From Candidatus Heimdallarchaeum aukensis (GTDB lineage Archaea; Asgardarchaeota; Heimdallarchaeia; Heimdallarchaeales; Heimdallarchaeaceae): a stretch of DNA of 64,000 nucleotides. Location of the stretch: contig CP084166.1 of the NCBI GenBank assembly GCA_021513695.1, positions 1,440,001-1,504,000 on the forward strand, in the 5' to 3' direction. The notes beneath the pieces were generated by a model. It searched no databases and was not told where the DNA came from. It saw only the letters and a list, made by a program, of their open reading frames with translations. This document shows positions 20,580 through 51,075 of the stretch, one piece after another. Every line of letters begins with the position of its first letter. Within the stretch, counting starts at the first letter, position 1. Both the position numbers and the translations under genes were made by a program.

Positions 20580-22931
20580 TTGGTTTTAATTAAAAGATTG
20601 ATTTTTTTCAAAAATCGTAAAAATGTTTATTATCTTTCATACGTAAATAAATTGGATAATATGGTAATACAAGAAGAGAGTAAGGACATCATAGAAGACT
20701 CACCTTTTAACCGCCTTGTTCTTGCAGAAATGGAGAGAGAACGACTTTACTCTACATTTGCTTTAGTTGACGAATTTAATGAAATTGCGTCTTCATGGTT
20801 AGAATTTTCAGATTTTTGTGCAAAATCATTATTTAATTTAACAAATTTATCATTTCTTCTCTATGAGCGGTATCTTGATGAATTTAATAGAGATAAGCAA
20901 CAAATAGAGATAAATTTTGAACGTAAAAGCTTCATTATTAAGAGAATAGAAAATCTGCAACAATTCCAAATGGAAGCAGCTATTTTAATGATTCTCTATG
21001 CAGATATTGTTAACACAGGCATTTTTGAGTCTAAACCTGCAGAAAATTTTTGTTATTTAAACATTGAAGGATATAAGGTTCTTGAGAAAATCTCTTCTAC
21101 ATATTTCGATTCTACTCATCCCAGGGCCTCATCAATTGAAGATATTATGGTAAAGTTATTTACAATAAGTCAAAAAGTCCAAATTGTGAAGATACTAAAT
21201 GATTCGCCAATTAAAAAAGCAAAAGAACCATCTTTTATTCAAGAACAACTTGAGTTGGAAAGATTATTAGCAAGTTTTGAGTTTGATTTTATTGCTAAGT
21301 TAATAGAAGAACTCGGAAAAAGATGGTGGTGGTATGACCCAATTGCAATACATTTTAGCTATGAAAGAGCAATGAAACACTTAGAAAAATCTCTTTCCCT
21401 TTTAGAACATAGTGAGGAAAATGTTCTACAAATTAAAGAAGAAATTAAAAATAAGATCTCAACAATAGATAAAATTTGGAGAAATAAAGCACTAATTGAT
21501 CACTTTTATAGAATCACATTAGAAGCAGCTAAAAAAGACAACTTTGTTGCAAGCATCGAATACCTAAACTTAATTTTAGGATTAATCGATGAAATCATTG
21601 AATATTTTCAAAACAATAATGAACATTTAGAAAGCGAAGAACAATTTTATGAAGAAATAGAAGAACGTAAAAACGATTTAAAAGTTTTTCATATTGTTGT
21701 CAGACTAGCTCTTTCTGTAGCTGAAATCATAAACAAACAAACCTCAATAGATAAAGCATTGTTAGAAAAAAAACTTACAGAAATAGAAAAAATATGCAAA
21801 GATTCTTCATTGTTTTCCAATATAAATTACTTCTCTGAAATTATTTATGTTTATCAAGGCTTTGTTCAAACAGCTAGAATTGGTATACTGAAGAAACAAA
21901 AAACAGAGAAAATCTTGAATAATGCAATAGCACAATTTGAATACTATATAGTCAAACTTGAGAATAGTTTAACAAAAATTGCTAATGATTTTTATAAGAA
22001 AGTCCATAAAGGGACGCTAAAAAGTACTGATTTTAAAAATTACTTAAAAAAGATTGAAGAGTTAAAGTACATCAGTTTCTTTTTACCTAACTTAGAACAA
22101 AAACTCAATCTTACACGAGAAATAGAGTCAATGGAATGTTATATTAAATCAATAGCTGCATTAAAACAGTCACAATCCCAAGAGTTGTCTGAAATTGAAA
22201 AACTCATCTATTATTCGAAAGCACACTATTTCTCAAATAAAGCTTTAGATTTGTCTCAAAGTAAGGAAAAAGCCATAATTCCTGACAATTGGCTTGAAGA
22301 GCAGTTCCTTAAAACTTTCACTGAAGGGAGAGAAGTCGAGTTAAAACTTTTTGAATTATCACGTCAATTTCTTTTTCTAAATAAAGTAATAGATGAAATT
22401 GCTTATTGCTTTGACATTTCAGAAAAAAAGAAAGAAAAAATTGAAAATTATGAGACAGTTCTTCAATTTCACTTTAGAAAATTTGAACTCTTTGAAATCA
22501 TTAACAAACAGATAGAAGAAAATTGTTTAGAATCCCTGAAATACAGAGAAATATCAAATGATATTGTAATTGTAGATAAAAACGTCAATTGGCAAATTAT
22601 TGAAGCTAAAAAAATATTGGCATCTTCAGCAGACAAATTAATCAAAGCACTTAAAAAATGCGCCCTTGGTTATGCAGCAGATAGAAGTAAAGACAACTAT
22701 AAAGCAGCTGTTTTATTTAATGAAGGTTATAAGCTGGTTCAGGAAGCATGTAATATTTTAGACCCACTAACTACATATGACAAACAATTTGCTGATTTGG
22801 CAAAAACAACTTACGAATTCAATTTGTTTCTAAAGGAACTTGAACGTTTGGAACTTGAGAAGAAAAAAATAAAAGAATTTCCTCTAGAAAAAGTGTTGTC
22901 TCTAGTTAAGAAAATAATTTTCTTTTCGTAA
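20580..22931 (+). CDS. Large (~755-783 aa) predicted all-alpha hypothetical protein
   Basis: Long uninterrupted ORF with an E/K-rich helical composition and no recognisable catalytic motif. The likely start is the ATG at 20661 ('MVIQEESKD'). Confidence 0.55.
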   Translation: MVLIKRLIFFKNRKNVYYLSYVNKLDNMVIQEESKDIIEDSPFNRLVLAEMERERLYSTFALVDEFNEIASSWLEFSDFCAKSLFNLTNLSFLLYERYLDEFNRDKQQIEINFERKSFIIKRIENLQQFQMEAAILMILYADIVNTGIFESKPAENFCYLNIEGYKVLEKISSTYFDSTHPRASSIEDIMVKLFTISQKVQIVKILNDSPIKKAKEPSFIQEQLELERLLASFEFDFIAKLIEELGKRWWWYDPIAIHFSYERAMKHLEKSLSLLEHSEENVLQIKEEIKNKISTIDKIWRNKALIDHFYRITLEAAKKDNFVASIEYLNLILGLIDEIIEYFQNNNEHLESEEQFYEEIEERKNDLKVFHIVVRLALSVAEIINKQTSIDKALLEKKLTEIEKICKDSSLFSNINYFSEIIYVYQGFVQTARIGILKKQKTEKILNNAIAQFEYYIVKLENSLTKIANDFYKKVHKGTLKSTDFKNYLKKIEELKYISFFLPNLEQKLNLTREIESMECYIKSIAALKQSQSQELSEIEKLIYYSKAHYFSNKALDLSQSKEKAIIPDNWLEEQFLKTFTEGREVELKLFELSRQFLFLNKVIDEIAYCFDISEKKKEKIENYETVLQFHFRKFELFEIINKQIEENCLESLKYREISNDIVIVDKNVNWQIIEAKKILASSADKLIKALKKCALGYAADRSKDNYKAAVLFNEGYKLVQEACNILDPLTTYDKQFADLAKTTYEFNLFLKELERLELEKKKIKEFPLEKVLSLVKKIIFFS

Positions 22932-24972: not shown

Positions 24973-25042
24973 AAAAAGTAAAAGAAGAAATGTGATTTGT
25001 TTTTCTGAAAGATTTATTACATCCTTCTTTTCTTTTCATTTA

Positions 25043-25984
25043 ATGAAAGAAAAAGGTAAAATTGTTTTTTTAGGTGGTGGTACAGGAACACCTAAACTTA
25101 TACAAGGGATTAGGAGAATTATTAATGAAGAGAATATCACTGTAATTACCAATACAGCAGATGATATAACTCTTTATGGTTTATATATATCTCCAGATGT
25201 AGATACATATCTTTACCTTTTTTCAAATTTACTTGACACTAAAAAATTCTGGGGTATAGAAGGAGATTCTTATTATACTTATTCATTTCTAAAGAAATTC
25301 GACAAAAATGCTTGGTTCACTTTGGGAGATAAAGATTTAGCTATCCATCTCTTTAGAACACAAAAACTTCAAGAAGGGAAGAACCTTTCAGAAATAACAA
25401 CTATCTTAGCCAATCGTTTAAATATAAAAGCAAAAATTTTACCATGTACAGATAATCATATAGAAACAAGAATTGTTACAAAAAATGGCCATGACATTCA
25501 TTTTCAAGAGTTTTGGGTACGCGAAAAAGCAAACTTATCTATTAAAGAAATATATGTTAAGGGAATAGAAAACGCGATTATTCCTGATGATATTTTTAGC
25601 GAAATTGAGGAAGCAGATAAAATTATTTTAGGTCCTAGCAATCCAATAACAAGTATCGGTCCGATAATTTCGATAAAAAAAATTAGACAGTCATTAAAGA
25701 AAAATAAAGAGAAATGCATAGCTATTAGTCCTATTGTTGGAGATAGGGCAATAAGTGGACCTACATGTCAATTTCTTGCAACTAAAAACAAAAATTGCTC
25801 AATAAAAGATATAATTTCCCTTTATGAAGATTTTATTACATGCTTTTTTATTGATGAGTCTGATAAGAACATAGAAGAACAAATTAAAAATATCTATCCA
25901 AATTTAGATATTCGAAATGAAAATATAGTAATGAAAGATATTAGTATCTCACAGAATTTAGCAAAAACATTGCTTAAGGTGTAA
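25043..25984 (+). CDS. cofD: 2-phospho-L-lactate transferase CofD-like (CofD/UPF0052 family)
   Basis: 'KIVFLGGGTGTPKLIQGIRRII...ITVITNTADD' matches the TGTPKL motif of CofD. Start taken at the ATG at 25043 ('MKEKGKIVFLGGG'). Confidence 0.7.
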   Translation: MKEKGKIVFLGGGTGTPKLIQGIRRIINEENITVITNTADDITLYGLYISPDVDTYLYLFSNLLDTKKFWGIEGDSYYTYSFLKKFDKNAWFTLGDKDLAIHLFRTQKLQEGKNLSEITTILANRLNIKAKILPCTDNHIETRIVTKNGHDIHFQEFWVREKANLSIKEIYVKGIENAIIPDDIFSEIEEADKIILGPSNPITSIGPIISIKKIRQSLKKNKEKCIAISPIVGDRAISGPTCQFLATKNKNCSIKDIISLYEDFITCFFIDESDKNIEEQIKNIYPNLDIRNENIVMKDISISQNLAKTLLKV

Positions 25985-25986
25985 AA

Positions 25987-26775
25987 ATGGAAATCTCTCC
26001 ACCTATTATTCAATCTGCATTAGCGGGATATACAACACCATCATTCATTCAATCAATATTAGATAATGGTGCGGGTATGGCTACATTTGGAGGTTATTCT
26101 TTAGATAAATTAACAAATGAGGGATCAACTGAAATAATTAAGAGAAATAGAAAAGAGATTTTACTCCCACGAGATGAAACTGAATTTCAAAAGTGGTGCA
26201 ATCTAAATTTAAATGTAAAAAAAAGTTCAGATAAACAATTAATTGCAATTAATTTACGAATATCTAAAATAGACCAAGAAACTTTAAGAAAAATAAATTT
26301 TTTATCAAACTTTATTGATATTATAGAATTAAATGCTCATTGTAGACAGAAAGAAATTGTAGAAAGGAGAGGAGGAGAGTATTTACTCAAAGATATTAAT
26401 CATTTAGACTACATACTAGAAAAAATCAGAAAAACTTCTCCAAATGATAAAAAGATCGGGATAAAAATCAGAGGTTACATTGTAAAAGACCAACAAAAAC
26501 TAGTGAATGTTCTTGAATCAAGATCTGTTGACTATTTACATATTGACTGCATGGAACCTGGAAAACCCTATGCAAACTTAAAAATACTAAAATCTTTTTC
26601 TGAATTAACAGATATCACTTTAATTGGAAATAACTCTGTTAGAAATGTAAAAGATGTTCAACAAATGATTGATGCAGGAGCTTCTGCTGTTTCAATCGCA
26701 AGACCTTTAATTACTAACCCTAGTTCTATCAAAAGGTTAATATCAGAATGCAAAAACAAAGGAATTCTAAAATGA
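25987..26775 (+). CDS. Dus-like (tRNA-dihydrouridine-synthase-like) FMN-dependent TIM-barrel protein
   Basis: 'ALAGYTTPSFIQ' (cf. Dus 'lAPMagvTd..fR'), 'IIELNAHCRQKEIVERRGGEYLL' (cf. 'IDlNmGCP..kv.k.g.G.aLl', Cys retained), 'IGIKIRGY', 'DYLHIDCM' and 'GASAVSIARPLITNP'. Start lies 3 bp after the cofD stop, and the stop overlaps the cofC start (ATGA). Confidence 0.45.
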   Translation: MEISPPIIQSALAGYTTPSFIQSILDNGAGMATFGGYSLDKLTNEGSTEIIKRNRKEILLPRDETEFQKWCNLNLNVKKSSDKQLIAINLRISKIDQETLRKINFLSNFIDIIELNAHCRQKEIVERRGGEYLLKDINHLDYILEKIRKTSPNDKKIGIKIRGYIVKDQQKLVNVLESRSVDYLHIDCMEPGKPYANLKILKSFSELTDITLIGNNSVRNVKDVQQMIDAGASAVSIARPLITNPSSIKRLISECKNKGILK

Positions 26776-27377
26776 CCAAGACAGCATTCCTCATTCCATA
26801 TAAAGGAACAAATAAAGCAAAAACCAGATTAAGAAGAAAACTTAATGGAGAAGTTGTAGATAAACTCCTTTTTCGTCTCTTCGGAGCGGTAATTCAAGAA
26901 CTATCAGAAATGAAAATAGAAAAGTCTATATACATCTTAACAAAAAACTCTAATCTTCTTCTTAATGAGAATTGTATAAAAATAGTTGACAAAAAAGATG
27001 ACTTTAATGAAGCTATTGTTGAAGCTGTTAAAGATCTAAGTGAAGAAAATATCATAATCATCATGGCTGATCTTTACAAAATTAAAAAAAAAGAGATTAG
27101 ACGAATTATTAAATTAAGAAAAAAGTATTCTGTGGTTATTGCACCCTCAGAAAATGATGGAACTAGCATTTTTGCATTTTCTAAAAAATTACTTTCTGAA
27201 ATAGAATTCTGTTTTGGAAATAATTCTTCATTAATATTTGAAAAACAATTTAAGCAAAAAGGAATAAATTATTTTAAATTACGCTATAAGAATGTTTTTA
27301 AGGATATAGATAACCTTGAAGATATTCTTAGTATAAAAAAATTAGCAAAAGAATTAAACTTATTCAACAAAAATTAG
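26772..27377 (+). CDS. cofC: CofC-like guanylyltransferase (MobA-like nucleotidyltransferase fold)
   Basis: 'TAFLIPYKGTNKAKTRLRRKL' matches CofC 'aiIPvK.f..AKTRL'. ATG at 26772-26774, overlapping the stop of the Dus-like gene. Confidence 0.6.
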   Translation: MTKTAFLIPYKGTNKAKTRLRRKLNGEVVDKLLFRLFGAVIQELSEMKIEKSIYILTKNSNLLLNENCIKIVDKKDDFNEAIVEAVKDLSEENIIIIMADLYKIKKKEIRRIIKLRKKYSVVIAPSENDGTSIFAFSKKLLSEIEFCFGNNSSLIFEKQFKQKGINYFKLRYKNVFKDIDNLEDILSIKKLAKELNLFNKN

Positions 27378-30823: not shown

Positions 30824-30912
30824 TTGTTTTATTTTAGATACTTAAGGTTGTTTATTCTCAAAAGCAATCAAATTTTTAAATTAAAGTTTTTTTATCATTC
30901 TTGTTGATTTTA

Positions 30913-32298
30913 ATGAACATCCAAGAGCATATTTTCAGAGCTTATGATATCAGAGGTCTATTTAATAAAGATCTCACTTCTGGAGTGATGTACAAAATTG
31001 GATTAGCTGCAGGAACTTATACTAAAAAGATCCTTGAAGAACATGAAATTATTGTAGGTAATGATATCAGATACTCTAGCATTCCTTTAGCTTTTGCTTT
31101 TATTTCTGGTGTATTGTCTTCCGGAGTAGATGTCGTCTATGTAGGAACTACGGCTTTCGGACAAACTTTATTCAGAGGATGGGAAAAGAAAAAAGGTCCT
31201 ATTGCTTTTATCACTGCTAGTCATCTTCCTCCTGAATGGAATGGAATCAAATTTTACTATTCTGATGGAGTAGGATTCCCAGAAGAAGAACTAAAAAAAA
31301 TAAGAGACTTTTGTTTAAATAATAATGTTGAACTCGCAAGTTGGGATAAAATTGGAAAACTTTCCCAAGAAGATGCTAAAGAAAACTACTTGGAATTTTT
31401 CAAAAAGAATTTCCAATTTGAAAACAAAGTAAAAGTTGCAGTGGATTGTGGAGGAGCTAGTACAACTCTTTCTGCTCCAGAAATTTTTCAATCAATTGGA
31501 ATTAACTTTGTTCCTGTTTTTTGTGAAACTGATCCTAGTTTTTCAGTAAGGCCTTCCGACCCTAAACCTAAAAATCTTGCTGAGTTGAAAAAAACAGTTA
31601 TAGAACAAAACTGTGACTTTGGAGTGGCTTTTGACGGGGACGGAGATAGAGCTGTTATTGTTGATAATAAGGGAAACGTACTCTCTGCGGATCAAACAGG
31701 TATAATAATCGCAAAATATGGGTTGAAAGAGAAAAAAGGAGTTATAATCGCAAATGTTGAATGTTCAAAAGCAGTAGATGAACAATTGTCTCCTCTTGGA
31801 TATAAAATAAAAAGGATTCCAGTAGGGCATACTTTTTTAACCCTTGAAGCGAAAAAAGAGAATTCACCCCTAGGGATAGAATCATCTGGACACTTAATAT
31901 TACCAGAATATTTCTTATTTGATGATGCTCTCGTAATTCCTCTAAAAGTGGCAGAAATACTCACAAAATCAGATAAGAGCTTGAATGAACTTGTGCAAGA
32001 AATTCCTATTTATCCAATTAAGAAGGAAGAAGTAGAGTGCGAAGACAAAATTAAGTTCGAAGTGATGAAGATTTTCTCAGAAGAGGTTAAGAAAGAATTT
32101 TCAAATGTGTCAACATTAGATGGTGTTAGAATTGAATTAGAAAAAGGTTGGGTGCTTATAAGACCGTCTAATACTAGTCCTATAATCAGACTAACAGCTG
32201 AAGCCGATACAGAAGAAGTCTTGAATGAGATCACCAGTAGTTTTAAAGAAAGGCTAAGCAAAACAATAGAAAAATACATGGAGAAGGCGAGAGCTTGA
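30913..32298 (+). CDS. Phosphoglucomutase/phosphomannomutase (alpha-D-phosphohexomutase family)
   Basis: Active-site Ser loop 'TASHLPPEWNGIKF', Mg loop 'GVAFDGDGDRAVIVD', sugar loop 'GIESSGH'. Confidence 0.85.
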   Translation: MNIQEHIFRAYDIRGLFNKDLTSGVMYKIGLAAGTYTKKILEEHEIIVGNDIRYSSIPLAFAFISGVLSSGVDVVYVGTTAFGQTLFRGWEKKKGPIAFITASHLPPEWNGIKFYYSDGVGFPEEELKKIRDFCLNNNVELASWDKIGKLSQEDAKENYLEFFKKNFQFENKVKVAVDCGGASTTLSAPEIFQSIGINFVPVFCETDPSFSVRPSDPKPKNLAELKKTVIEQNCDFGVAFDGDGDRAVIVDNKGNVLSADQTGIIIAKYGLKEKKGVIIANVECSKAVDEQLSPLGYKIKRIPVGHTFLTLEAKKENSPLGIESSGHLILPEYFLFDDALVIPLKVAEILTKSDKSLNELVQEIPIYPIKKEEVECEDKIKFEVMKIFSEEVKKEFSNVSTLDGVRIELEKGWVLIRPSNTSPIIRLTAEADTEEVLNEITSSFKERLSKTIEKYMEKARA

Positions 32299-32705
32299 AA
32301 AATACTAATTCTTTTTTTTATTGTAAGTATTCTTCTCAATGTTTTGAATGTTGTAAAGAGACAGAAATGGTTCTTTCAAATGAAGATATCCTAAGAATAA
32401 AAAAACTAGGTTATAAAGTTCAAGAATTTGCCTTATATGAAGATGGTTTTTACATATTAAAGAACAAAAATGGATATTGCGTTTTCTTAAAAAATGGTAA
32501 ATGTTCTATTTATAAAAATAGACCGGAAGGATGTAAATATTATCCTTTAATATTCGATGTAGAGAGCAACTCTGTTATTATAGATAAAGACTGCCCCAAG
32601 AAAGAAAAATTCAACTTAAATAATTACTCATATCTAAGAACTAATGTTTTACATTTTGTTCTTAGACTATTTAAAGAAAAAGAAGAAAGAAAAAAAAGAG
32701 AATAG
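32295..32705 (+). CDS. YkgJ-family CxxCxxCC zinc/iron-chelating domain protein
   Basis: 'CKYSSQCFECCKE' plus 'CVFLKNGKCSIY' and 'GCKYYP' (UPF0153/YkgJ pattern). The TTG start overlaps the PGM stop, so the start is uncertain. Confidence 0.5.
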   Translation: MKNTNSFFYCKYSSQCFECCKETEMVLSNEDILRIKKLGYKVQEFALYEDGFYILKNKNGYCVFLKNGKCSIYKNRPEGCKYYPLIFDVESNSVIIDKDCPKKEKFNLNNYSYLRTNVLHFVLRLFKEKEERKKRE

Positions 32706-32732
32706 ATTTAGAATAATATTGTATTTTAGCTA

Positions 32733-33833
32733 TTATTCATCAGTAAACATATTTTCAAATTTCTTTAGAACACCTGGTAAAGTGGTGTATTCCATTTCAC
32801 TTAATGGCAATCTACTAGGTTCAAAAGGTCCATGCGCTCGAATGTAGTCTGCAATTTCATTTACTCTTCTTCTAACATGGTCAAAAGAAACATCATCAAA
32901 CAGATCTACAGGGCCAACAATCTTTCCATTTTTTAATTGGAAACCTAAACTAACTACTCGAGGTGGCCCATCAAATCTGCCATTTTGACTATATTCAAGG
33001 CTTACAGGCATCAATGGTCCTCTGTGACTTCCTCTCATCCATCCTGAAACAAGATGACCAAGTGTAAAAGCTTCAAGTACCTCTCCTACAGCTGGAAAAC
33101 CACTTTGTGATCTCACAATAGCTACCGGATCATCTTTACCAACATATTTTCCAGCAATTAGAGAAAGTTTGTCCGTAGAAACTACTGCAGCTTGTCCTAA
33201 CTGCTCATTTTTTGAGAAAACTGATTTGATTACATAGTGTCCTGGTGCACCGATTAATGCCAATAGATCATACATCTGTTCAGGACAAGAGAGGGTAAGA
33301 TATTTGTTATTGTGTATATCCATTATTTTAAACTTGAATCCATCATGTAACTTTGGATCAATAACTAGTCCAGCTGTATTAAAGGGATTGGCAAAAATAT
33401 TGAAAATAGGGTAGTTGAATGCACCGGGTTCTGTTTTATCCATACCAAAAACAATTATAGGTTCTGCAGGTCTCTCTTCTATCTCCATTTCAGCTACTCC
33501 AGGTCCCATTCCTTTAACATTACCTGAAAAAGTATCAGTAAGAAGATCTTGCCCCGCACCATATAAACCATATTCTCTTGCATCTTGTCCAAGTTCCATA
33601 AAAATATCCCATGCTAATTTGTGTATTTCTTCACTATTCACACCTTTCTCATGTGTCATGAGAAGGTTTGTATCATCTCCTGCATTAAAGACCATAAAGT
33701 CGATAAGCAGTCCATCTTCCTTTGCTTTTTCTAAAAGCTCTTCAGCCTTTTCCATTAAAGGTTCATACACGACTACGTGTCCAGGTGAAGAACCGATATC
33801 TGCTTTAATCAAACTAATTGTTGTTTTGGTCAT
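32733..33833 (-). CDS. fbp: Bifunctional fructose-1,6-bisphosphate aldolase/phosphatase (class V FBPase, archaeal type)
   Basis: 'MTKTTISLIKADIGSSPGHVVV' is the hallmark N-terminus of FBPA/P. 366 aa. Confidence 0.9.
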   Translation of the reverse strand: MTKTTISLIKADIGSSPGHVVVYEPLMEKAEELLEKAKEDGLLIDFMVFNAGDDTNLLMTHEKGVNSEEIHKLAWDIFMELGQDAREYGLYGAGQDLLTDTFSGNVKGMGPGVAEMEIEERPAEPIIVFGMDKTEPGAFNYPIFNIFANPFNTAGLVIDPKLHDGFKFKIMDIHNNKYLTLSCPEQMYDLLALIGAPGHYVIKSVFSKNEQLGQAAVVSTDKLSLIAGKYVGKDDPVAIVRSQSGFPAVGEVLEAFTLGHLVSGWMRGSHRGPLMPVSLEYSQNGRFDGPPRVVSLGFQLKNGKIVGPVDLFDDVSFDHVRRRVNEIADYIRAHGPFEPSRLPLSEMEYTTLPGVLKKFENMFTDE

Positions 33834-33983
33834 ATAATATCACCTTATATTAACAAGTCTTAATATGTATTCGATACCCGTATCGTATATAAACTTTCGC
33901 CAACAACGATGTTTTGCCTAAAAAACGCTAAAACTTGTGAAAAATGGACTTATAAAAAAATTGTGAAAAAAGAAAGAAAAAGT

Positions 33984-34877
33984 TTACAAAAGATCGACAA
34001 GGTCAGAAGACCCACCAACAAAACCGACTTTTTGGTGTAAATAATCCATTTCTGTTAATTTATTAGGTTCTAGGCGAGGAACTGTTTCAAGGGTAAACAT
34101 CTCCTTGTTCTTTGTGATATAGTATCCTTTACCATTGACTTTTGAGAGAATATATAAGTAAGGTAAAATTTCATAGCATAGTCTTAATTTTGGTGAAAAA
34201 TAGGCGAAAACCCCAGTTTTATCAAGTATGTTATTCATATCTTGGACTAGGCACCCTCCATATCTTAGTTTTCCAACCTTCTTAATCTTATTCACAAATT
34301 CTTTTTCTTTTTCTGTAAATTCTTCTTCTTTTCCACCAAAACCATAAACTGGCTTTGAGCTGGGGCTTATTGATAAATCATCTTTCAGTACAAAGAATTC
34401 TCCATCAGCGTGAATAAACTGAATATAACCTGCTTCTGTAGCTAAATCAAATCGTAGAAATAGAGTATAACTTACAGTCATAGCTGCTTGTATATTTCCT
34501 TGTTTGTCTGTGATAAGAATTATTCCTCCTGGTCCTCTTGACCTTACAATTGATGATCCATCAATAAAATCACCCAAAATGATAAATTCTCCTGTTCCTT
34601 CAGTTATATTTTCTGGTGTTGTTTCTTCGCCTAAAAGGAGATAATAGTCCTCTTTTGGTAGTTTTTGTAAGAATAATTCATGGGATGCAACATCCAAGCT
34701 TAGTTGCATATCTCCAGAAACGTTTATTGTTCCAGCATATTCTTTTTCGTCTTTAATAAAACTTAGAATTTGTTTCGGGATCTCTAGAGTCACAACAAGA
34801 ATATCTTTTATTAGTTTTGACAAAGATGAATCTAGATCTGCTAAATATTCATCTAAGGTCGAGTATTTTGTTTTCAT
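33984..34877 (-). CDS. Class I (FBPase_1 family) fructose-1,6-bisphosphatase-like protein
   Basis: 'VSGDMQLSLDVASHELF' (cf. 'VQGEVQQKLDLFANE'), 'FIILGDFIDGSSIV' (cf. 'VVLMDPLDGSSNID') and 'RYGGCLVQDMNNILDKTGVFAYFSPKLRLCYEILP' (cf. '[24 protein letters not shown]...KLRLLYECNP'). Confidence 0.65.
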   Translation of the reverse strand: MKTKYSTLDEYLADLDSSLSKLIKDILVVTLEIPKQILSFIKDEKEYAGTINVSGDMQLSLDVASHELFLQKLPKEDYYLLLGEETTPENITEGTGEFIILGDFIDGSSIVRSRGPGGIILITDKQGNIQAAMTVSYTLFLRFDLATEAGYIQFIHADGEFFVLKDDLSISPSSKPVYGFGGKEEEFTEKEKEFVNKIKKVGKLRYGGCLVQDMNNILDKTGVFAYFSPKLRLCYEILPYLYILSKVNGKGYYITKNKEMFTLETVPRLEPNKLTEMDYLHQKVGFVGGSSDLVDLL

Positions 34878-34887
34878 TTCAACCCCT

Positions 34888-36057
34888 TCAGTAAGAATCT
34901 ATTAAATCATTTGAGGTGATGTATTGATAACAAAGTTCTGCAGTATTTTCCATTTTTAGAGCCTTAATGAATTTCAGCATCTCTTCCTCAGCTTTTTCGA
35001 TTATTTTTTCTTTTGTTTCTCCTTTTAAATTCTCAATTTTGTTGAAAAATGGTTTCCAAGCCCTTTTCGCATTTGAAGCAAAAACTTTGTGCTCGTCTAC
35101 TCCTTCTTTCATATAGTTCTCAAGTACCCATGCTCGCATCTCTGAATAGAGTTCTGGTTCTTCTTCTTCTAAAACAGAGTAAACTACATTTTGCCAGTGT
35201 GTGCCTATATTTCCTTTGGCTACCGCTCCATGTGGAAATGTTGATTCTATAACATCGATAGGTGTTCCTGTTATTCCATGTTGAGCAATCCTTGTACCAA
35301 ACCCTTCTTCCTTTAGGGCATCAACGATTTCAACTGTTCTTTTCACATTAATTCCCAATTGAGGAATAATGTTTCCTTCTGCGTCAACGTTTACTCCGTG
35401 TTTTGATCCATTTGCGATGGCTAAATAATCTAAAGTTACTCCATGTTCTTTCAAACTTCTAACATAAAAAGTAGCTTCTTCAACTGTTGTATACTCTGTA
35501 ATTCCTATTTCTCCCACTTCACCTTCTAAGCCATAAGCTCTTCCTTTCATCTGTTCTTCTAGAAATTCAAATAATACCAATCCTTTCTTAATAATTTGTT
35601 CTAGTTGTCCCTTTACTTCAGATTGATTTCTGTCAAAAAGGAAAGAGGTATCAATTGCATATCCTGTAAAACCAGCATTTACTCTTGCTTCTATTTCTTT
35701 TTTCACTTGTTCCATTTCTTCATCTGTACCTTTTTTCACTGTAAGATGGTCAGCATGTAACGCATAAGCAAACCATTTTTCTTTTTCTGCTGCGCTTTTA
35801 CATCTATTAGCAAAGAGTTCTGGAGTATAACCTGTGTATCCTCCTGAAATGGACATCTCACTTAATGCTAATTCAAAAATTACAACAGCATTCTTTTTTT
35901 TAGCAGCCCTTAAAACTCCACGAATTACTTCTTCCGTTGCTCTGGGGTTTATTGCAGCTATTATTGAGCAGGTGTTTAATGTTCCTTTTGCAATATAATT
36001 CAAAGGTAGAGGAGATCTTGGATTTTCAAAATAGGTTACTACTTCTTCTTTTGTCAT
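34888..36057 (-). CDS. Class II (metal-dependent) ketose-bisphosphate aldolase family protein
   Basis: 'ALHADHLTV' (HxDH), 'GFTGYAIDTSFL' and 'LAIANGSKHGV' correspond to conserved class II FBA/tagatose-bisphosphate aldolase segments. Start set at the ATG at 36055-36057 ('MTKEEVVTYF'). Confidence 0.6.
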   Translation of the reverse strand: MTKEEVVTYFENPRSPLPLNYIAKGTLNTCSIIAAINPRATEEVIRGVLRAAKKKNAVVIFELALSEMSISGGYTGYTPELFANRCKSAAEKEKWFAYALHADHLTVKKGTDEEMEQVKKEIEARVNAGFTGYAIDTSFLFDRNQSEVKGQLEQIIKKGLVLFEFLEEQMKGRAYGLEGEVGEIGITEYTTVEEATFYVRSLKEHGVTLDYLAIANGSKHGVNVDAEGNIIPQLGINVKRTVEIVDALKEEGFGTRIAQHGITGTPIDVIESTFPHGAVAKGNIGTHWQNVVYSVLEEEEPELYSEMRAWVLENYMKEGVDEHKVFASNAKRAWKPFFNKIENLKGETKEKIIEKAEEEMLKFIKALKMENTAELCYQYITSNDLIDSY

Positions 36058-36125
36058 TCTGAAGAAAAAAATATCATACCAATAATAACATTTTCGATTA
36101 AAAATGAGAAATTGATGAAGAAAAG

Positions 36126-36437
36126 CTAAACAAAAATTACTTCTTCTCGCACCATTGTTTCTACATTTTGCATTTCTTTTGTCCACTCGTGGTAAAGTTT
36201 AGAGATTTCTTCTTCACTACGTAGAAGTTTATTCAAATCTGTGTAATCTTGTAACCAAAAAATCCAGATAGAAGTAGCTCCTATACCTATTCCTCCACTT
36301 GCAGCAACAATTTCCTTTATCCAAGGAGCTTCATTAACAAGTTCGTGAAACTTCCTAACCTTTTTTGACAATTTGTCGCTTATCTCCTCTGGCCAGTCAA
36401 ACATTACAATATAATATATTCCAGGTTTTTTCGACAT
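36126..36437 (-). CDS. Hypothetical 103-aa protein (possible ferredoxin-like alpha+beta barrel)
   Basis: ORF only ('GIYYIVMFDWPEE...'); the fold guess is weak. Confidence 0.4.
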   Translation of the reverse strand: MSKKPGIYYIVMFDWPEEISDKLSKKVRKFHELVNEAPWIKEIVAASGGIGIGATSIWIFWLQDYTDLNKLLRSEEEISKLYHEWTKEMQNVETMVREEVIFV

Positions 36438-36574
36438 ACTAGCACCTTTTTGTAAATAATATATAAAACGAACTTAAAAAGAATTCGAAATTATAAGGCA
36501 TATTTTTAATATTGGTATATTTTAATCTAATTTCCTTTAGCAAATATTATTAACATTGAAAAAAACGATTCTCA

Positions 36575-37504
36575 ATGAAGTATGGAATAATTATCCACGG
36601 AGGAGCTTGGGATATTCCTGATAACTTTGTTGATAACCATTTGGATGGAATAAATAACGCTTTAAAACTAGGTTATTCACTTCTTGAAGATAATAATAAT
36701 GCCATTGATATTGCTGAAAAAGTAGTTGTTTTGTTAGAAAATGACCCTACATTTGATGCTGGAAAAGGTTCTTTTTTAAATGCTTTAGGTAAGGTCGAGA
36801 TGGATGCAATAATAGCTACAGATGACTATAAAATTGGTTCTGTTGCAGCCCTAAATAATTATTCTAATCCTATAAAAATTGCAAGAGCGATATATGATTT
36901 TGATGGGGCAGTAATGTTAGTTGGAGAAGGAGCAAAAATTTTTGCTGAGCAGCTTGGGTTCCAACAATGCAAAGTTGAAGATTTACTTGTAGGGAGAGAA
37001 CTTGAGAGATACTTAAAGATAAAAAAAGACGCTACTTTTGTCCCAAAAGATGCTTTTAGACGTAAAACGAGAGGGACTGTTGGTGCAGTTGTTCTAGACA
37101 AAAAAGGGAGAATGGCTGTGGCAGTCTCAACAGGAGGAACACCAAAAAAACCTCCAGGAAGAGTAGGAGATACGCCATTATTTGGAGCAGGAGCATATAT
37201 AGAAAAAGACAAACTAGGTGTTGCTGCGACTGGATACGGTGAAGACCTAATTAAAGCTCTAATCTCGAAGAGGGTGCTAGACTTTTTTGACAGAGGGCTT
37301 TCTCCTCTAGAATCAACAGAACAAGCAATATCTTTTCTTTCTAAAAATGTTCAAGGATTAGGCGGAGTCATTGCTTTAGGAAAAAAGGGAGTAGGGTTAG
37401 CTTTTAATACCCCAAGAATGGCTTTCGGTGTTCAAACAGACGAAATTGATAGCTTTATTGGTATTAATCAAAAAGACAAAGAAGAACTATCGAAACAGCT
37501 GTAG
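36575..37504 (+). CDS. Isoaspartyl peptidase / L-asparaginase (Ntn-hydrolase, plant-type asparaginase family)
   Basis: 'YGIIIHGGAW', nucleophile Thr in 'RGTVGAVVLDKKGRMAVAVSTGG', and 'GAGAYIE...GVAATGYGE'. Confidence 0.85.
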   Translation: MKYGIIIHGGAWDIPDNFVDNHLDGINNALKLGYSLLEDNNNAIDIAEKVVVLLENDPTFDAGKGSFLNALGKVEMDAIIATDDYKIGSVAALNNYSNPIKIARAIYDFDGAVMLVGEGAKIFAEQLGFQQCKVEDLLVGRELERYLKIKKDATFVPKDAFRRKTRGTVGAVVLDKKGRMAVAVSTGGTPKKPPGRVGDTPLFGAGAYIEKDKLGVAATGYGEDLIKALISKRVLDFFDRGLSPLESTEQAISFLSKNVQGLGGVIALGKKGVGLAFNTPRMAFGVQTDEIDSFIGINQKDKEELSKQL

Positions 37505-48748: not shown

Positions 48749-50650
48749 TTGAACAAAAGTAAATTCCCCTACAAAGGATATTGTGGAAAAATAATAGAAG
48801 TGGATTTAACAGAAGAAAAAGTAGAAACAAAAGATCTTGAGGTAGAAGTAGCTGAACAGTACATAGGAGGAAGAGGGCTAGCTATCCGCTATCTAATTAA
48901 AAATCTCAAACCAAAAATTGACCCCCTGGGAGAAGAAAATATACTGGTAATAAGCACGGGGCCGCTAACAGGCACTCTAGCTCCTTCTTCAGCAAGATAT
49001 ACAATAGCAACAAAATCTCCACTCACGGGAGTAATAGGCTACGCTAACTCGGGAGGACATTTTGCCCCAGAGTTAAAATACGCAGGCTATGACGCCATAA
49101 TAATAAAAGGAAAAGCGAAAAGTCCAAAATATTTGCTTATTCAAGATGAGAAAGTAAGTATAGAAGATGCTTCCCACTTATGGGGAAAGGATACTTGGGA
49201 AACAGATAAAATACTGAAAAGTGAGTATGAATCTTCTAATTTACAGATTCTGTCTATTGGTCAAGCTGGAGAGAATAAGGTCTTATATGCTGCAATAATG
49301 AATAATTTGTCTAGAGCTGCAGCTAGGACTGGTGTTGGAGCTGTTATGGGGTCAAAAAATCTCAAGGCCATTGCTGTTTCTGGTTCAGGATTTGTCGAGG
49401 TACATAACCCTGAGGAATTTATTGAATTTACTAATAAAACATTAGAAAAGATATATGATGACCCTGCTTATCCAAGTTTATCGGATTATGGGACAAGTTT
49501 TTTAGTTGATTTAGCCTATTTAGGAGGAGGATTAGCTACAAACAACAACCAGTTTGGTGTATTTGATGGTTATGATGGTATTTCAGCAGAAACATTTTAT
49601 GAAAAATATAAGGTGAAATCAGATAGTTGTTTTGCATGCCCGATACATTGTGGGAAGTATTCAAAAGTGGAAGAAGGAAAATATGCAGGCATTGAAGGTG
49701 GAAGTCCAGAATATGAATCAATTGTTTGTTTAGGGTCAAAATGTGGCATAGGAGATTTAGCTACAATAATCTATGCTAATGATCTATGTAATAGATATGG
49801 GTTAGACACAATATCATTGGGTGACACAGTTGCTTTTGCTATGGAAGCGTATGAAAAAGGAGTTCTAAAAAAAGAAGATACAGATGGAATTGATTTAACA
49901 TGGGGAAACCAAGATGCACTAATTGAGCTAATCCATAAAATAGCTAGAAGAGAGGGATTTGGAGATCTATTAGCAGATGGAACAAAAATAGCTTCAGAAA
50001 AAATCAATAAGGGATCAGAAGAATATGCATTACATGTTAAAGGTATGGAACCACCAGCATATGATGTAAGAACAGCGAAAGCTTTTGGTTTAGGTTGGGC
50101 TACAGCTAACAGAGGAGCAGACCATTTATCTGCATTACCTAATTTCGAATTGTTAGGTTATCCAAAAGAGAAAGGTGTAGAGTGGTTTGGTTCAGAAAAA
50201 GCAGTAGACCCTTATGCTTGGGAAAGTAAAGCAAGAATGACAGTTTGGCATGAAAATTTTGGCGCTGTAGTAGATTCCGCAGAGATGTGTAAATATACTT
50301 GTTTTTCAGCTTATGCAGTAAAACCAGACGATATGACCAAGTTTTTGTCTTATGCAACAGGAATGGAACTTAGCGAAGAAAAAGTAATGGAGATTGGAGA
50401 GAGAATTTACAATCTAGAAAGATTGTTCAATGAAAGAGAAGGAAAAGCTAAAGATTCTGATTATTTACCTAAAAGATTTACAGAAGAACCTTTGCCCAGT
50501 GGCCCAGCTAAAGGACAAGTAGTAGAACTGGATAAAATGTTAAAAGAATACTATGAAATAAGAGGATGGGTTAACGGTGCTCCAAAAAAGGAAAAACTGA
50601 AAGAACTGGGAATAGAACAATTTGCAACAAAAAAGGAGGAGGAAAAATGA
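48749..50650 (+). CDS. aor: Tungsten-containing aldehyde:ferredoxin oxidoreductase (AOR family)
   Basis: N-terminal 'GYCGKIIEVDLTEEKV', 'GSKNLKAIAV', Fe-S ligands 'CFACPIHCGK', 'GLDTISLG', and the C-terminal helical domain. TTG start per track (no in-frame ATG before the conserved N-terminus). Confidence 0.85.
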   Translation: MNKSKFPYKGYCGKIIEVDLTEEKVETKDLEVEVAEQYIGGRGLAIRYLIKNLKPKIDPLGEENILVISTGPLTGTLAPSSARYTIATKSPLTGVIGYANSGGHFAPELKYAGYDAIIIKGKAKSPKYLLIQDEKVSIEDASHLWGKDTWETDKILKSEYESSNLQILSIGQAGENKVLYAAIMNNLSRAAARTGVGAVMGSKNLKAIAVSGSGFVEVHNPEEFIEFTNKTLEKIYDDPAYPSLSDYGTSFLVDLAYLGGGLATNNNQFGVFDGYDGISAETFYEKYKVKSDSCFACPIHCGKYSKVEEGKYAGIEGGSPEYESIVCLGSKCGIGDLATIIYANDLCNRYGLDTISLGDTVAFAMEAYEKGVLKKEDTDGIDLTWGNQDALIELIHKIARREGFGDLLADGTKIASEKINKGSEEYALHVKGMEPPAYDVRTAKAFGLGWATANRGADHLSALPNFELLGYPKEKGVEWFGSEKAVDPYAWESKARMTVWHENFGAVVDSAEMCKYTCFSAYAVKPDDMTKFLSYATGMELSEEKVMEIGERIYNLERLFNEREGKAKDSDYLPKRFTEEPLPSGPAKGQVVELDKMLKEYYEIRGWVNGAPKKEKLKELGIEQFATKKEEEK

Positions 50651-51075
50651 TAAAGAGGATCTTTGCGGATACAAAAAGATGCAATGGATGTAGAATATGT
50701 GAATTAAGATGTTCGTTTGAACATGATAGAGTCTTTGGTACAAAATTGGCAAGAATAAGAATAATAATGAACGAAGAACAAGGAGAATATAAACCTAATA
50801 CATGTAGGCTATGCTATAAATGTATTAAGGCATGCCCTGAAAATGCAATATCAAAAAACGAAAAAACGGGAGCAATAAAAATAGATCATGAACTTTGCAC
50901 AGGTTGTGGAAAATGTGTAGAAGCATGTCCATTTAATGTAATGTTCCTTCATCCAATAAAAGAAAAGGCAATAACATGTGACCTATGTGAAGGAGATCCT
51001 CAATGCGTGAAATACTGTCCAGAGAAGGTATTATTTTACACAACATCACAAGAGTTCAAAAAATTAACAAACTAA
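50647..51075 (+). CDS. Polyferredoxin (4x CxxCxxCxxxCP clusters), AOR electron partner
   Basis: 'CNGCRICELRC', 'CRLCYKCIKACP', 'CTGCGKCVEACP', 'CDLCEGDPQCVKYCP'. Start overlaps the AOR stop (ATGA). Confidence 0.85.
   Translation: MIKRIFADTKRCNGCRICELRCSFEHDRVFGTKLARIRIIMNEEQGEYKPNTCRLCYKCIKACPENAISKNEKTGAIKIDHELCTGCGKCVEACPFNVMFLHPIKEKAITCDLCEGDPQCVKYCPEKVLFYTTSQEFKKLTN

Follow-up and report, generated by a model that had tools for sequence, protein, structure and literature searches.

We analyzed a 64,000-nucleotide stretch of the Candidatus Heimdallarchaeum aukensis genome (contig CP084166.1, positions 1,440,001 to 1,504,000; hereafter, the window) and confirmed, from the list of its open reading frames (ORFs), three consecutive ORFs at 32733-36057, all on the minus strand. 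The most upstream of these encodes ALD, an archaeal enzyme of the class II aldolase superfamily, and is followed by FBPL, a highly diverged phosphatase with the class I fold, and FBPA/P, a class V fructose-1,6-bisphosphate (FBP) aldolase/phosphatase (Table 1). An earlier note on this DNA had described three types of FBP enzyme in a row; the motifs it quoted are all present in the translations, and Pfam and NCBIfam scans agree with the types it named. In these family scans, two of the three genes, FBPL and ALD, score far from the canonical enzymes. FBPA/P is an already known enzyme. We placed the start of ALD at the ATG at 36057, rather than at the GTG at 36186 to which the mechanical ORF extends, because the 100%-identical protein P0001 is 389 aa long and all homologs begin there. 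Taken as a whole, this gluconeogenesis/glycolysis locus is tidy and for the most part ordinary, FBPL being its one unusually diverged member.

Table 1. Features of the FBP-enzyme cluster and its flank, in window coordinates (BRE, B recognition element).
Feature	Position	Strand	Remarks
FBPA/P	32733-33833	-	366 aa; PF01950 579 bits, NF041126 569 bits (cut-off 520)
23-nt element TAATATGTATTCGATACCCGTAT	33861-33883	+	Directly downstream of FBPA/P TATA box; candidate operator
BRE/TATA-like promoter of FBPA/P, cgaaag tttatata	33886-33899	-	Read from sequence; putative promoter activity
T-rich tracts 'actttttctttcttttttcacaattttttta' after FBPL stop	33946-33983	-	Probable oligo-T terminator (archaeal type) for the ALD-FBPL unit; putative termination
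FBPL, highly diverged class-I-fold sugar-bisphosphate phosphatase	33984-34877	-	297 aa; Heimdallarchaeaceae-specific clade
ALD-FBPL spacer aggggttgaa	34878-34887	-	10 nt; GGGG ribosome-binding site, read from sequence
ALD, archaeal class-II-aldolase-superfamily enzyme, GatZ-like architecture, probable FBP aldolase	34888-36057	-	389 aa
Putative BRE/TATA region of the ALD-FBPL unit	36079-36105	-	Aligns with conserved upstream block; tentative
Phosphoglucomutase/phosphomannomutase-family gene	30901-32298	+	Pfam PGM_PMM_I-IV; convergent with cluster
CxxCxxCC protein gene	32295-32705	+	Pfam CxxCxxCC; convergent with cluster

The FBPA/P gene encodes a bona fide class V FBP aldolase/phosphatase, an enzyme class reportedly described by Say and Fuchs in 2010. 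Its product matched Pfam FBPase_3 (PF01950) over its full length (E 5.6e-174; cut-off 25), scored above the cut-off of the NCBIfam equivalog FBP_aldo_phos (NF041126), and carries SLIKADIGSSPGH at residues 7-19. We observed no notable difference between this protein and other members of the class; what sets the gene apart is a conserved 23-nt promoter element, so far seen only in the loci of Heimdallarchaeaceae (hereafter, Heimdall loci).

ALD belongs to the class II aldolase superfamily by its match to Pfam F_bP_aldolase (PF01116; E 1.1e-20, 74.7 bits against a cut-off of 25.5) and its TIM-barrel fold. The translation contains HADH at residues 101-104 and ANGSKHG at 215-221, and in an alignment of sequences 51-100% identical the motifs LHADH, GxEGEVGEIG, ANGSKHG, AQHGITGTP and KGNIGT were invariant. 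For the last three of these, the counterparts in the class II aldolase 8q58 are GTAHG, LHGGSG and KVNVDT, the alignment placing H220, H260 and N283 of ALD on those motifs, and D103-H104 presumably corresponds, by motif, to the D109-H110 pair of FbaA. ALD therefore carries the class II metal/enediolate motif, as the D-H pair, two further histidines, the acidic loop and the K-x-N positions are all invariant.

The predicted fold of ALD suggests that its architecture is that of the GatZ/UxaE branch of this superfamily. The best structural match was a tagatose 4-epimerase from a Thermoprotei archaeon (9kct; score 33.1, root mean square deviation 2.2 Å over 344 residues, 24% identity), followed by GatZ (2fiq; 29.9), UxaE (6il9; 26.9), the YdjI aldolase (26.4) and the FBP aldolases of Thermus aquaticus (1rv8; 25.9) and Mycobacterium tuberculosis (3ekl; 25.6). 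Sequence matches to this branch were partial: the GatZ_KbaZ-like model PF08013 gave 36 bits over residues 40-168 only (profile positions 22-154 of 420), agaZ_gatZ gave 34 bits against a cut-off of 569, so that a full-length GatZ/KbaZ match was not obtained, and GatZ/UxaE-type epimerases in the PDB matched partial stretches at E 2e-5 to 2e-4. Compared with GatZ/KbaZ, UxaE and tagatose 4-epimerase (9kct, 2fiq, 3txv, 6il9), to which its three-dimensional architecture is closest, ALD is about 100 residues shorter than UxaE and the epimerase, keeps the aldolase-type acidic loop GxEGEVGEIG, and occurs in a context of Embden-Meyerhof-Parnas (EMP) glycolysis and gluconeogenesis rather than of uronate or tagatose catabolism. 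From class II FBP aldolases (FbaA IIa/IIb, CbbA) and from GatY, KbaY, SqiA and YdjI it differs in being only about 16-23% identical, in its roughly 100 extra C-terminal helical residues, and in its GatZ-like N-terminal substrate loop.

A pattern scan with one genome per species recovered confirmed ALD loci in at least 574 archaeal species genomes, and 79 of the 80 best loci were archaeal. These best 80 include loci from Bathyarchaeia, Nitrososphaeria/Aigarchaeota, Methanosarcinales, ANME-1/2, Methanohalophilus, Methanoregula, Thermoplasmatota, DPANN groups and Helarchaeota. By neighbor-joining, Heimdall ALD is sister to a TACK clade at 50-57% identity, and a second clade holds Euryarchaeota, DPANN and Helarchaeota at 40-46% identity. 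Genome papers name the gene fbaA (e.g., PMC12892359). We conclude that ALD is a distinct archaea-wide lineage, uncharacterized in the literature we found and routinely auto-annotated as a class II aldolase.

Near-identical FBPase-ALD pairs were also observed at L050, L051, L053, L054 and L055, in metagenome-assembled genomes (MAGs) labeled Methanophagales, Nitrosotalea, Halobacteria, Methanosarcinales and Bathyarchaeia; a methanogen-type formylmethanofuran:tetrahydromethanopterin formyltransferase (Ftr) gene lies near the pairs of L050, L053, L054 and L055. Near-identical pairs under different labels point to mis-binning, mislabeling or very recent transfer, and we treated the labels 'Nitrosotalea' (L051), 'Halobacteria' (L053) and 'Bathyarchaeia' (L055) as unreliable.

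The genes around ALD were surveyed at 57 non-Heimdall species loci. Immediately adjacent to it we found a class I FBPase at 15 loci, phosphofructokinase (PFK) at 10, phosphoglucomutase (PGM) at 8, a GlpX-type FBPase at 6, triose-phosphate isomerase (TIM) at 6 and ribulose-phosphate 3-epimerase (RPE) at 3; FBPA/P (4 loci) and glyceraldehyde-3-phosphate dehydrogenase (GAPDH; 3 loci) lie within two genes. At 33 of the 57 loci, at least one of class I FBPase, FBPA/P, PFK, GlpX, TIM and GAPDH stands within two positions of ALD, and the orders FBPase-ALD-TIM and FBPase-ALD-FBPA/P were found in Thermoplasmatota and in a Methanoregula genome (L084), respectively. The FBPases, of three unrelated kinds, and PFK share only FBP and fructose-6-phosphate (F6P), and TIM and GAPDH bring in the triose phosphates. 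Read most simply, this gene context, the one line of evidence that speaks for FBP, makes ALD a probable FBP aldolase.

Compact ALD operons were seen in Thermoplasmatota (L049, L060, L062, L067, L071) and in the Methanoregula genome, and also at L066, L075 and L082. Further orders around ALD are GlpX-ALD-GAPDH and GAPDH-FBPase-ALD, a PFK-ALD arrangement occurs in Bathyarchaeia, ANME-1 and Helarchaeota, and across archaea unrelated FBPases swap beside a constant ALD. In Geocrenenecus/Aigarchaeota (L004/L005, L031, L033, L037), a Snf7 (ESCRT-III-like) gene is followed by ALD and then by RPE, the only pentose-phosphate link seen for the ALD family.

FBPL contains DFIDGSS at residues 103-109, RYGGCLVQD at 205-213 and KLRLCYE at 230-236. 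It matched Pfam FBPase_C (PF18913; E 1.2e-11, 45 bits against a cut-off of 27) and scored just under the cut-off for the N-terminal FBPase domain (PF00316; 30.4 against 34.8 bits), and precomputed Pfam lists both domains for FBPL homologs. In profile-to-PDB alignments the protein keeps equivalents of pig FBPase N64, D68, D74, E97, E98, D118 and D121, and also of R243, Y244, Y264, K274, R276 and E280. D68, D74, E97, E98, D118, D121 and E280, together with the motif D-x-x-D-G-S-S, are invariant in the homolog alignment, where 101 columns are invariant among sequences down to 57% identity. FBPL thus shares metal-binding and catalytic residues, and the 1-/6-phosphate contacts R243/Y244/Y264/K274/R276, with class I FBPase and sedoheptulose-1,7-bisphosphatase (SBPase) from pig, human, plants and E. 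coli and with the short archaeal forms (PRK09293.2-x/.3-x). It also shares their fold: Foldseek matched its model (pLDDT 74) to 7b2o, 4gwy and others with probability 1.0 and TM-scores of 0.65-0.69, and Chlamydomonas SBPase (7b2o) and pig FBPase fit equally well. The inositol monophosphatases were considered as a family for FBPL and rejected, as models of that type gave no match at E <= 0.01 and nine class-1 FBPase models did match. The earlier note had allowed that the class I- and class II-like genes might fall into non-FBP subfamilies; this proved wrong for FBPL, which lies in the FBPase and not the inositol-phosphatase family, and correct for ALD to the extent that its nearest structures are GatZ, UxaE and the tagatose epimerase.

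Against this common ground, FBPL departs from class I FBPases in several respects. It reaches 88 bits against model cut-offs of 349-576, has DFIDGSS in place of DPLDGSS, and has a shorter loop between Y264 and K274 and a C-terminal insertion of roughly 10-12 residues; in gene order, the FBPase lies upstream of ALD in other archaea, and this order is reversed in Heimdall. A word-indexed search returned 50 relatives; every one came from Heimdallarchaeaceae, and many carried the name 'hypothetical'. A HMMER search of 1.84 billion representatives gave a single full-length 50% cluster (534 bits), with the next match at 93 bits, and the nearest relatives outside Heimdall are short (about 280-310 aa) archaeal FBPases, e.g., from Micrarchaeota, at no more than 31% identity. 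The sequences suggest that FBPL is a sharply isolated, Heimdallarchaeaceae-only variant of class I FBPase.

We compared sequence divergence in the two partner proteins. Identity within Heimdall is 72.5% for ALD and 74.9% for FBPL, so that FBPL is as constrained as ALD today; among other archaea the values are 57.9% and 53.2%, and between Heimdall and the others 40.9% and 24.4%. From these values, FBPL appears either to have changed disproportionately on the Heimdall stem or to derive from a more distant paralog. The pattern is compatible with a functional shift, without proving one.

Conservation of the cluster was followed across 22 species genomes of Heimdall type, with protein identities to the window of 57-76%. 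FBPL adjoins ALD in 21 of 21 untruncated loci, as a rule 2-12 nt downstream of it and in some loci on the opposite strand. FBPA/P is present in the cluster at 10 loci and missing from this position at 10, with 2 loci truncated. ALD-FBPL is therefore the constant core of the cluster and FBPA/P its variable third member. Heimdallarchaeaceae genomes with proteins only 58-70% identical also carry the three genes in this order, and the CxxCxxCC protein, the PGM/PMM-family mutase and PlsY come next in nearly all of the Heimdall-type loci.

The intergenic regions suggest two transcription units, an ALD-FBPL unit and a separately controlled FBPA/P. ALD and FBPL look like one operon because of their 10-nt spacing. 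T-runs occur at the same place after FBPL in other Heimdall loci, where a conserved block AAG(C/A)AAAAATTCTTAA also lies about 40-50 nt upstream of the ALD starts. FBPA/P starts at 33833, and the alignment of its upstream regions in Heimdall loci keeps a block GG(C/T)AAAAnTTTAAATTA. Immediately 3' of its TATA box is the 23-nt element, of pattern TAATATGTATT-N4-ACCCGTAT, which matched the 64-kb window once with 0 mismatches, where 0.04 matches were expected. Ten other Heimdall loci carry one copy each, just upstream of FBPA/P (among them L001 6992-7012, L007 4336-4356, L010 8170-8190, L013 8173-8193 and L021 8168-8188; also L024, L025 and L027), in an orientation relative to FBPA/P opposite to that in the window. 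The element was not found in the upstream region of ALD, which has a different conserved A/T block. Archaeal repressors usually bind at the position that the element occupies, and we regard it as a candidate transcription-factor operator for the gluconeogenic gene FBPA/P. No riboswitch or other structured RNA was found in the intergenic regions: Rfam gave no match at E <= 1 across 32000-37000. The earlier note's suggestion of a redundant toolkit with separate control of its parts fits this anatomy, a tight ALD-FBPL unit beside an FBPA/P with its own BRE/TATA and element. We found no description in the literature of the conserved three-gene arrangement or of its promoter element.

From these data we propose, with somewhat better than even confidence, that the locus is a 'fructose-1,6-bisphosphate node' in which ALD and FBPL form a two-enzyme FBP module of the classical kind and FBPA/P is regulated separately. 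The proposal builds on the gene identities and folds, the conserved residues and gene order, the spread of the families and the structure of the promoters described above, to which it would add the substrate (FBP), directionality, co-transcription and regulation. ALD would be a metal-dependent aldolase interconverting dihydroxyacetone phosphate (DHAP) plus glyceraldehyde-3-phosphate and FBP for gluconeogenesis, and with a PFK encoded elsewhere it could also serve Embden-Meyerhof glycolysis; PFK and an ADP-dependent glucokinase have been reported in the related genome AB_125 (10.1101/385732). FBPL would hydrolyze the 1-phosphate of FBP to yield F6P. FBPA/P would combine the two steps in a single protein that works only in the gluconeogenic direction, and would be transcribed from its own promoter with the operator-like element. 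In evolutionary terms, ALD would represent an old, archaea-wide family with GatZ-like architecture, and FBPL would be derived from short class I FBPases of archaea, whose genes often share an operon with ALD, having changed strongly on the Heimdallarchaeaceae stem and been constrained since.

As a pairing of enzymes, the module has bacterial parallels. In the Calvin-cycle cbbF-cbbA operon and the glpX-fba operon of Bacillus methanolicus pBM19 (PMC8119897, PMC7092467), a phosphatase and a class II-type aldolase likewise form a co-transcribed two-step module, co-transcription of ALD and FBPL being the likely counterpart. The role of these bacterial operons is to assimilate CO2 or formaldehyde, and they include transketolase, RPE and phosphoribulokinase (PRK) or hexulose-6-phosphate synthase (HPS), of which none lies in the Heimdall cluster.

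Several observations weigh against this proposal. The best NCBIfam class-1 FBPase score of FBPL was 88.5 bits against a cut-off of 477, so FBPL is not recognized as an equivalog; other short archaeal FBPases linked to ALD scored 276-296 bits on the class-1 models, likewise under the cut-off. In its distal (6-)phosphate site R243, Y244, Y264 and K274 are kept, and N212/Y215 are replaced by G-G-K; a G-G at the N212 position is common to other short archaeal FBPases beside ALD. The AF2 model of FBPL is of moderate quality, with region 173-222 poorly defined. ALD reached only 39-48 bits on the NCBIfam aldolase models (cbbA 47.9 against 215.6, fruc_bis_ald 38.9 against 343), below the FbaA/CbbA equivalog cut-offs, and the entire archaeal ALD family scores equally low. 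Its nearest structures are tagatose 4-epimerase, GatZ and UxaE rather than true FBP aldolases. The trees are neighbor-joining trees only, and some MAG taxon labels among the ALD loci are doubtful. Our literature search found no biochemically characterized member of the ALD family or of the Heimdall FBPL clade, and these genes go unmentioned in the genome paper of H. aukensis. Finally, the evidence for the proposal leaves unexplained the presence of FBPA/P beside a complete FBP aldolase and FBPase pair.

This last point would be met if the ALD-FBPL pair acted instead on sedoheptulose-1,7-bisphosphate (SBP), condensing erythrose-4-phosphate with DHAP to SBP and releasing sedoheptulose-7-phosphate (S7P) in a Calvin-cycle-like or 'riboneogenesis'-like route to pentoses; FBPA/P would then handle FBP, and the apparent redundancy would be removed. 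Calvin-cycle and ribulose monophosphate (RuMP) operons (cbbA/cbbF, fbaP/glpXP) offer a precedent: their class II aldolases and class I/II FBPases are bifunctional, accepting both FBP and SBP. The equal fit of FBPL to Chlamydomonas SBPase, the N212/Y215 to GGK change in its distal phosphate pocket, its strong change on the Heimdall stem, which would suit a functional shift, and the RPE gene adjoining ALD in Geocrenenecus/Aigarchaeota all favor such a route. However, transketolase is reported absent from most Heimdallarchaeia (10.1101/385732), which would leave S7P a dead end and weakens the earlier note's suggestion of sedoheptulose or tagatose bisphosphates as substrates, and the G-G at N212 is common to all short archaeal FBPases and is therefore no Heimdall novelty. 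The contexts of ALD are mostly those of PFK, TIM and GAPDH and not of pentose-phosphate genes, and no pentose-phosphate pathway gene was seen among the scanned ORFs of the window; PFK, transketolase and transaldolase were absent among the ten scanned outside the cluster neighborhood. We consider the SBP route unlikely.

Another possibility is that ALD is not an aldolase at all and is either a ketose(-phosphate) C4-epimerase, for example converting F6P to tagatose-6-phosphate, or a GatZ-like non-catalytic partner, in which case the cluster would be less coherent than it appears. This would agree with the closeness of the predicted fold to tagatose 4-epimerase, GatZ and UxaE, and with an N-terminal ELALSEM..GGYTG.TP that aligns with GatZ. 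Some homologs are named by NCBI 'class II D-tagatose-bisphosphate aldolase, non-catalytic subunit', and F6P is a product or substrate common to PFK and all FBPases. A non-catalytic role is nevertheless made unlikely by the invariance in ALD of the D-H, both H-G, acidic-loop and K-x-N positions, and no GatY-like partner was found nearby. As for epimerization, the adjacency of TIM and GAPDH and the FBPase-ALD-TIM operons suit triose-phosphate condensation better than conversion of a hexose, and the occurrence of the family in methanogens, DPANN and Thermoplasmatota is hard to tie to tagatose metabolism. Overall we hold a non-aldolase function for ALD to be decidedly improbable, and retain FBP aldolase as its predicted activity.

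A further reading, which takes up a suggestion of the earlier note, is that the class I- and class II-like genes are of bacterial or eukaryotic type, recently acquired by horizontal transfer and clustered with a native FBPA/P. A recent review of cultured prokaryotes does place class II FBP aldolase and FBPase mainly in bacteria and sees few transfers into archaea (PMC12525153), an ALD homolog exists in one bacterial genome (Deferrimicrobium), and the near-identical FBPase-ALD pairs in differently labeled MAGs (L050-L055) could reflect transfer within archaea or mis-binning. Our results point the other way. The ALD family is archaeal at 79 of the 80 best loci, its rough tree separates Asgard plus TACK from Euryarchaeota plus DPANN, the best non-Heimdall relatives of FBPL are short archaeal FBPases, and neither protein scores anywhere near a bacterial equivalog of NCBIfam. 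Conservation of the cluster extends over a family-level clade, and its GC content equals that of its surroundings (about 31% in the window), with no compositional anomaly at the locus. We rejected recent transfer from bacteria on the family distribution, the rough ALD tree, the nearest relatives and the uniform GC content, and the scenario as a whole is very improbable; an ancient inter-domain transfer of the two genes may have occurred. That FBPL is a pseudo-enzyme, either decaying or with a regulatory role, because FBPA/P makes it redundant would accord with its extreme divergence from all other FBPases and its many copies annotated 'hypothetical protein', but is highly unlikely given 101 invariant columns, among them most of the checked positions for metal binding and substrate contact, an evolutionary rate no faster than that of ALD within Heimdall, and its retention beside ALD at all 21 loci, including the 10 without FBPA/P at the site.

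Other features of the window were recorded alongside the cluster. Directly upstream of ALD, a 103-aa ORF (36126-36437, minus strand) may be a species-specific small gene or a non-gene; it had no Pfam or NCBIfam match and no homolog in any of 85 related loci, and we dropped it as a cluster member. Genes for CofD (2-phospho-L-lactate transferase; 24992-25984, plus strand) and a CofC-like guanylyltransferase (26748-27377, plus strand) bracket a Dus/TIM-barrel-like ORF, which hints at biosynthesis of an F420-type (deazaflavin) cofactor in a Heimdall archaeon. At 48749-50650 (plus strand) lies a gene of the tungsten/molybdenum aldehyde:ferredoxin oxidoreductase family (AFOR_N/AFOR_C, 487 bits), which could be an aldehyde oxidoreductase (AOR) or a glycolytic enzyme of the glyceraldehyde-3-phosphate oxidoreductase (GAPOR) type, and a small cysteine-rich ORF (50647-51075, plus strand) comes after it. 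A 783-aa ORF at 20580-22931 (plus strand) had no Pfam match at E <= 1e-4.

If ALD and FBPL are a plain FBP aldolase and FBPase, this would be an ordinary though neatly organized gluconeogenic cluster. A more far-reaching reading, to which we give a low probability, is that the ALD family is an unrecognized, ancient, archaea-wide metal-dependent FBP aldolase with a GatZ/UxaE-like architecture that took three unrelated FBPases into its operons in different lineages, of which the class I partner was remodeled on the Heimdall stem into a new enzyme. If this were true, the remodeled FBPL might have an altered specificity, for SBP or some other ketose bisphosphate, or might be bound to ALD in an obligate channeling complex, its coexistence with FBPA/P would be explained, and the view of archaeal class II aldolases and class I FBPases as sporadic bacterial imports would be revised. 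The archaeal aldolase step is usually assigned to an aldolase of class IA or to FBPA/P, class II enzymes being regarded as rare bacterial imports, and a 2025 survey of cultured prokaryotes does not recognize the ALD lineage as archaeal (PMC12525153). Should the proposed functions hold, a divergent class II-type family present in hundreds of archaeal species, in EMP and gluconeogenic operons, would alter reconstructions of archaeal and Asgard central carbon metabolism, and an FBPA/P with its own promoter and operator-like site would offer a testable case of Asgard control over glycolysis and gluconeogenesis. Heimdallarchaeaceae are relatives of the eukaryotic host lineage, and as Heimdall FBPL is mostly annotated 'hypothetical', metabolic models of the archaea closest to eukaryotes could, on the same condition, overlook a conserved enzyme.

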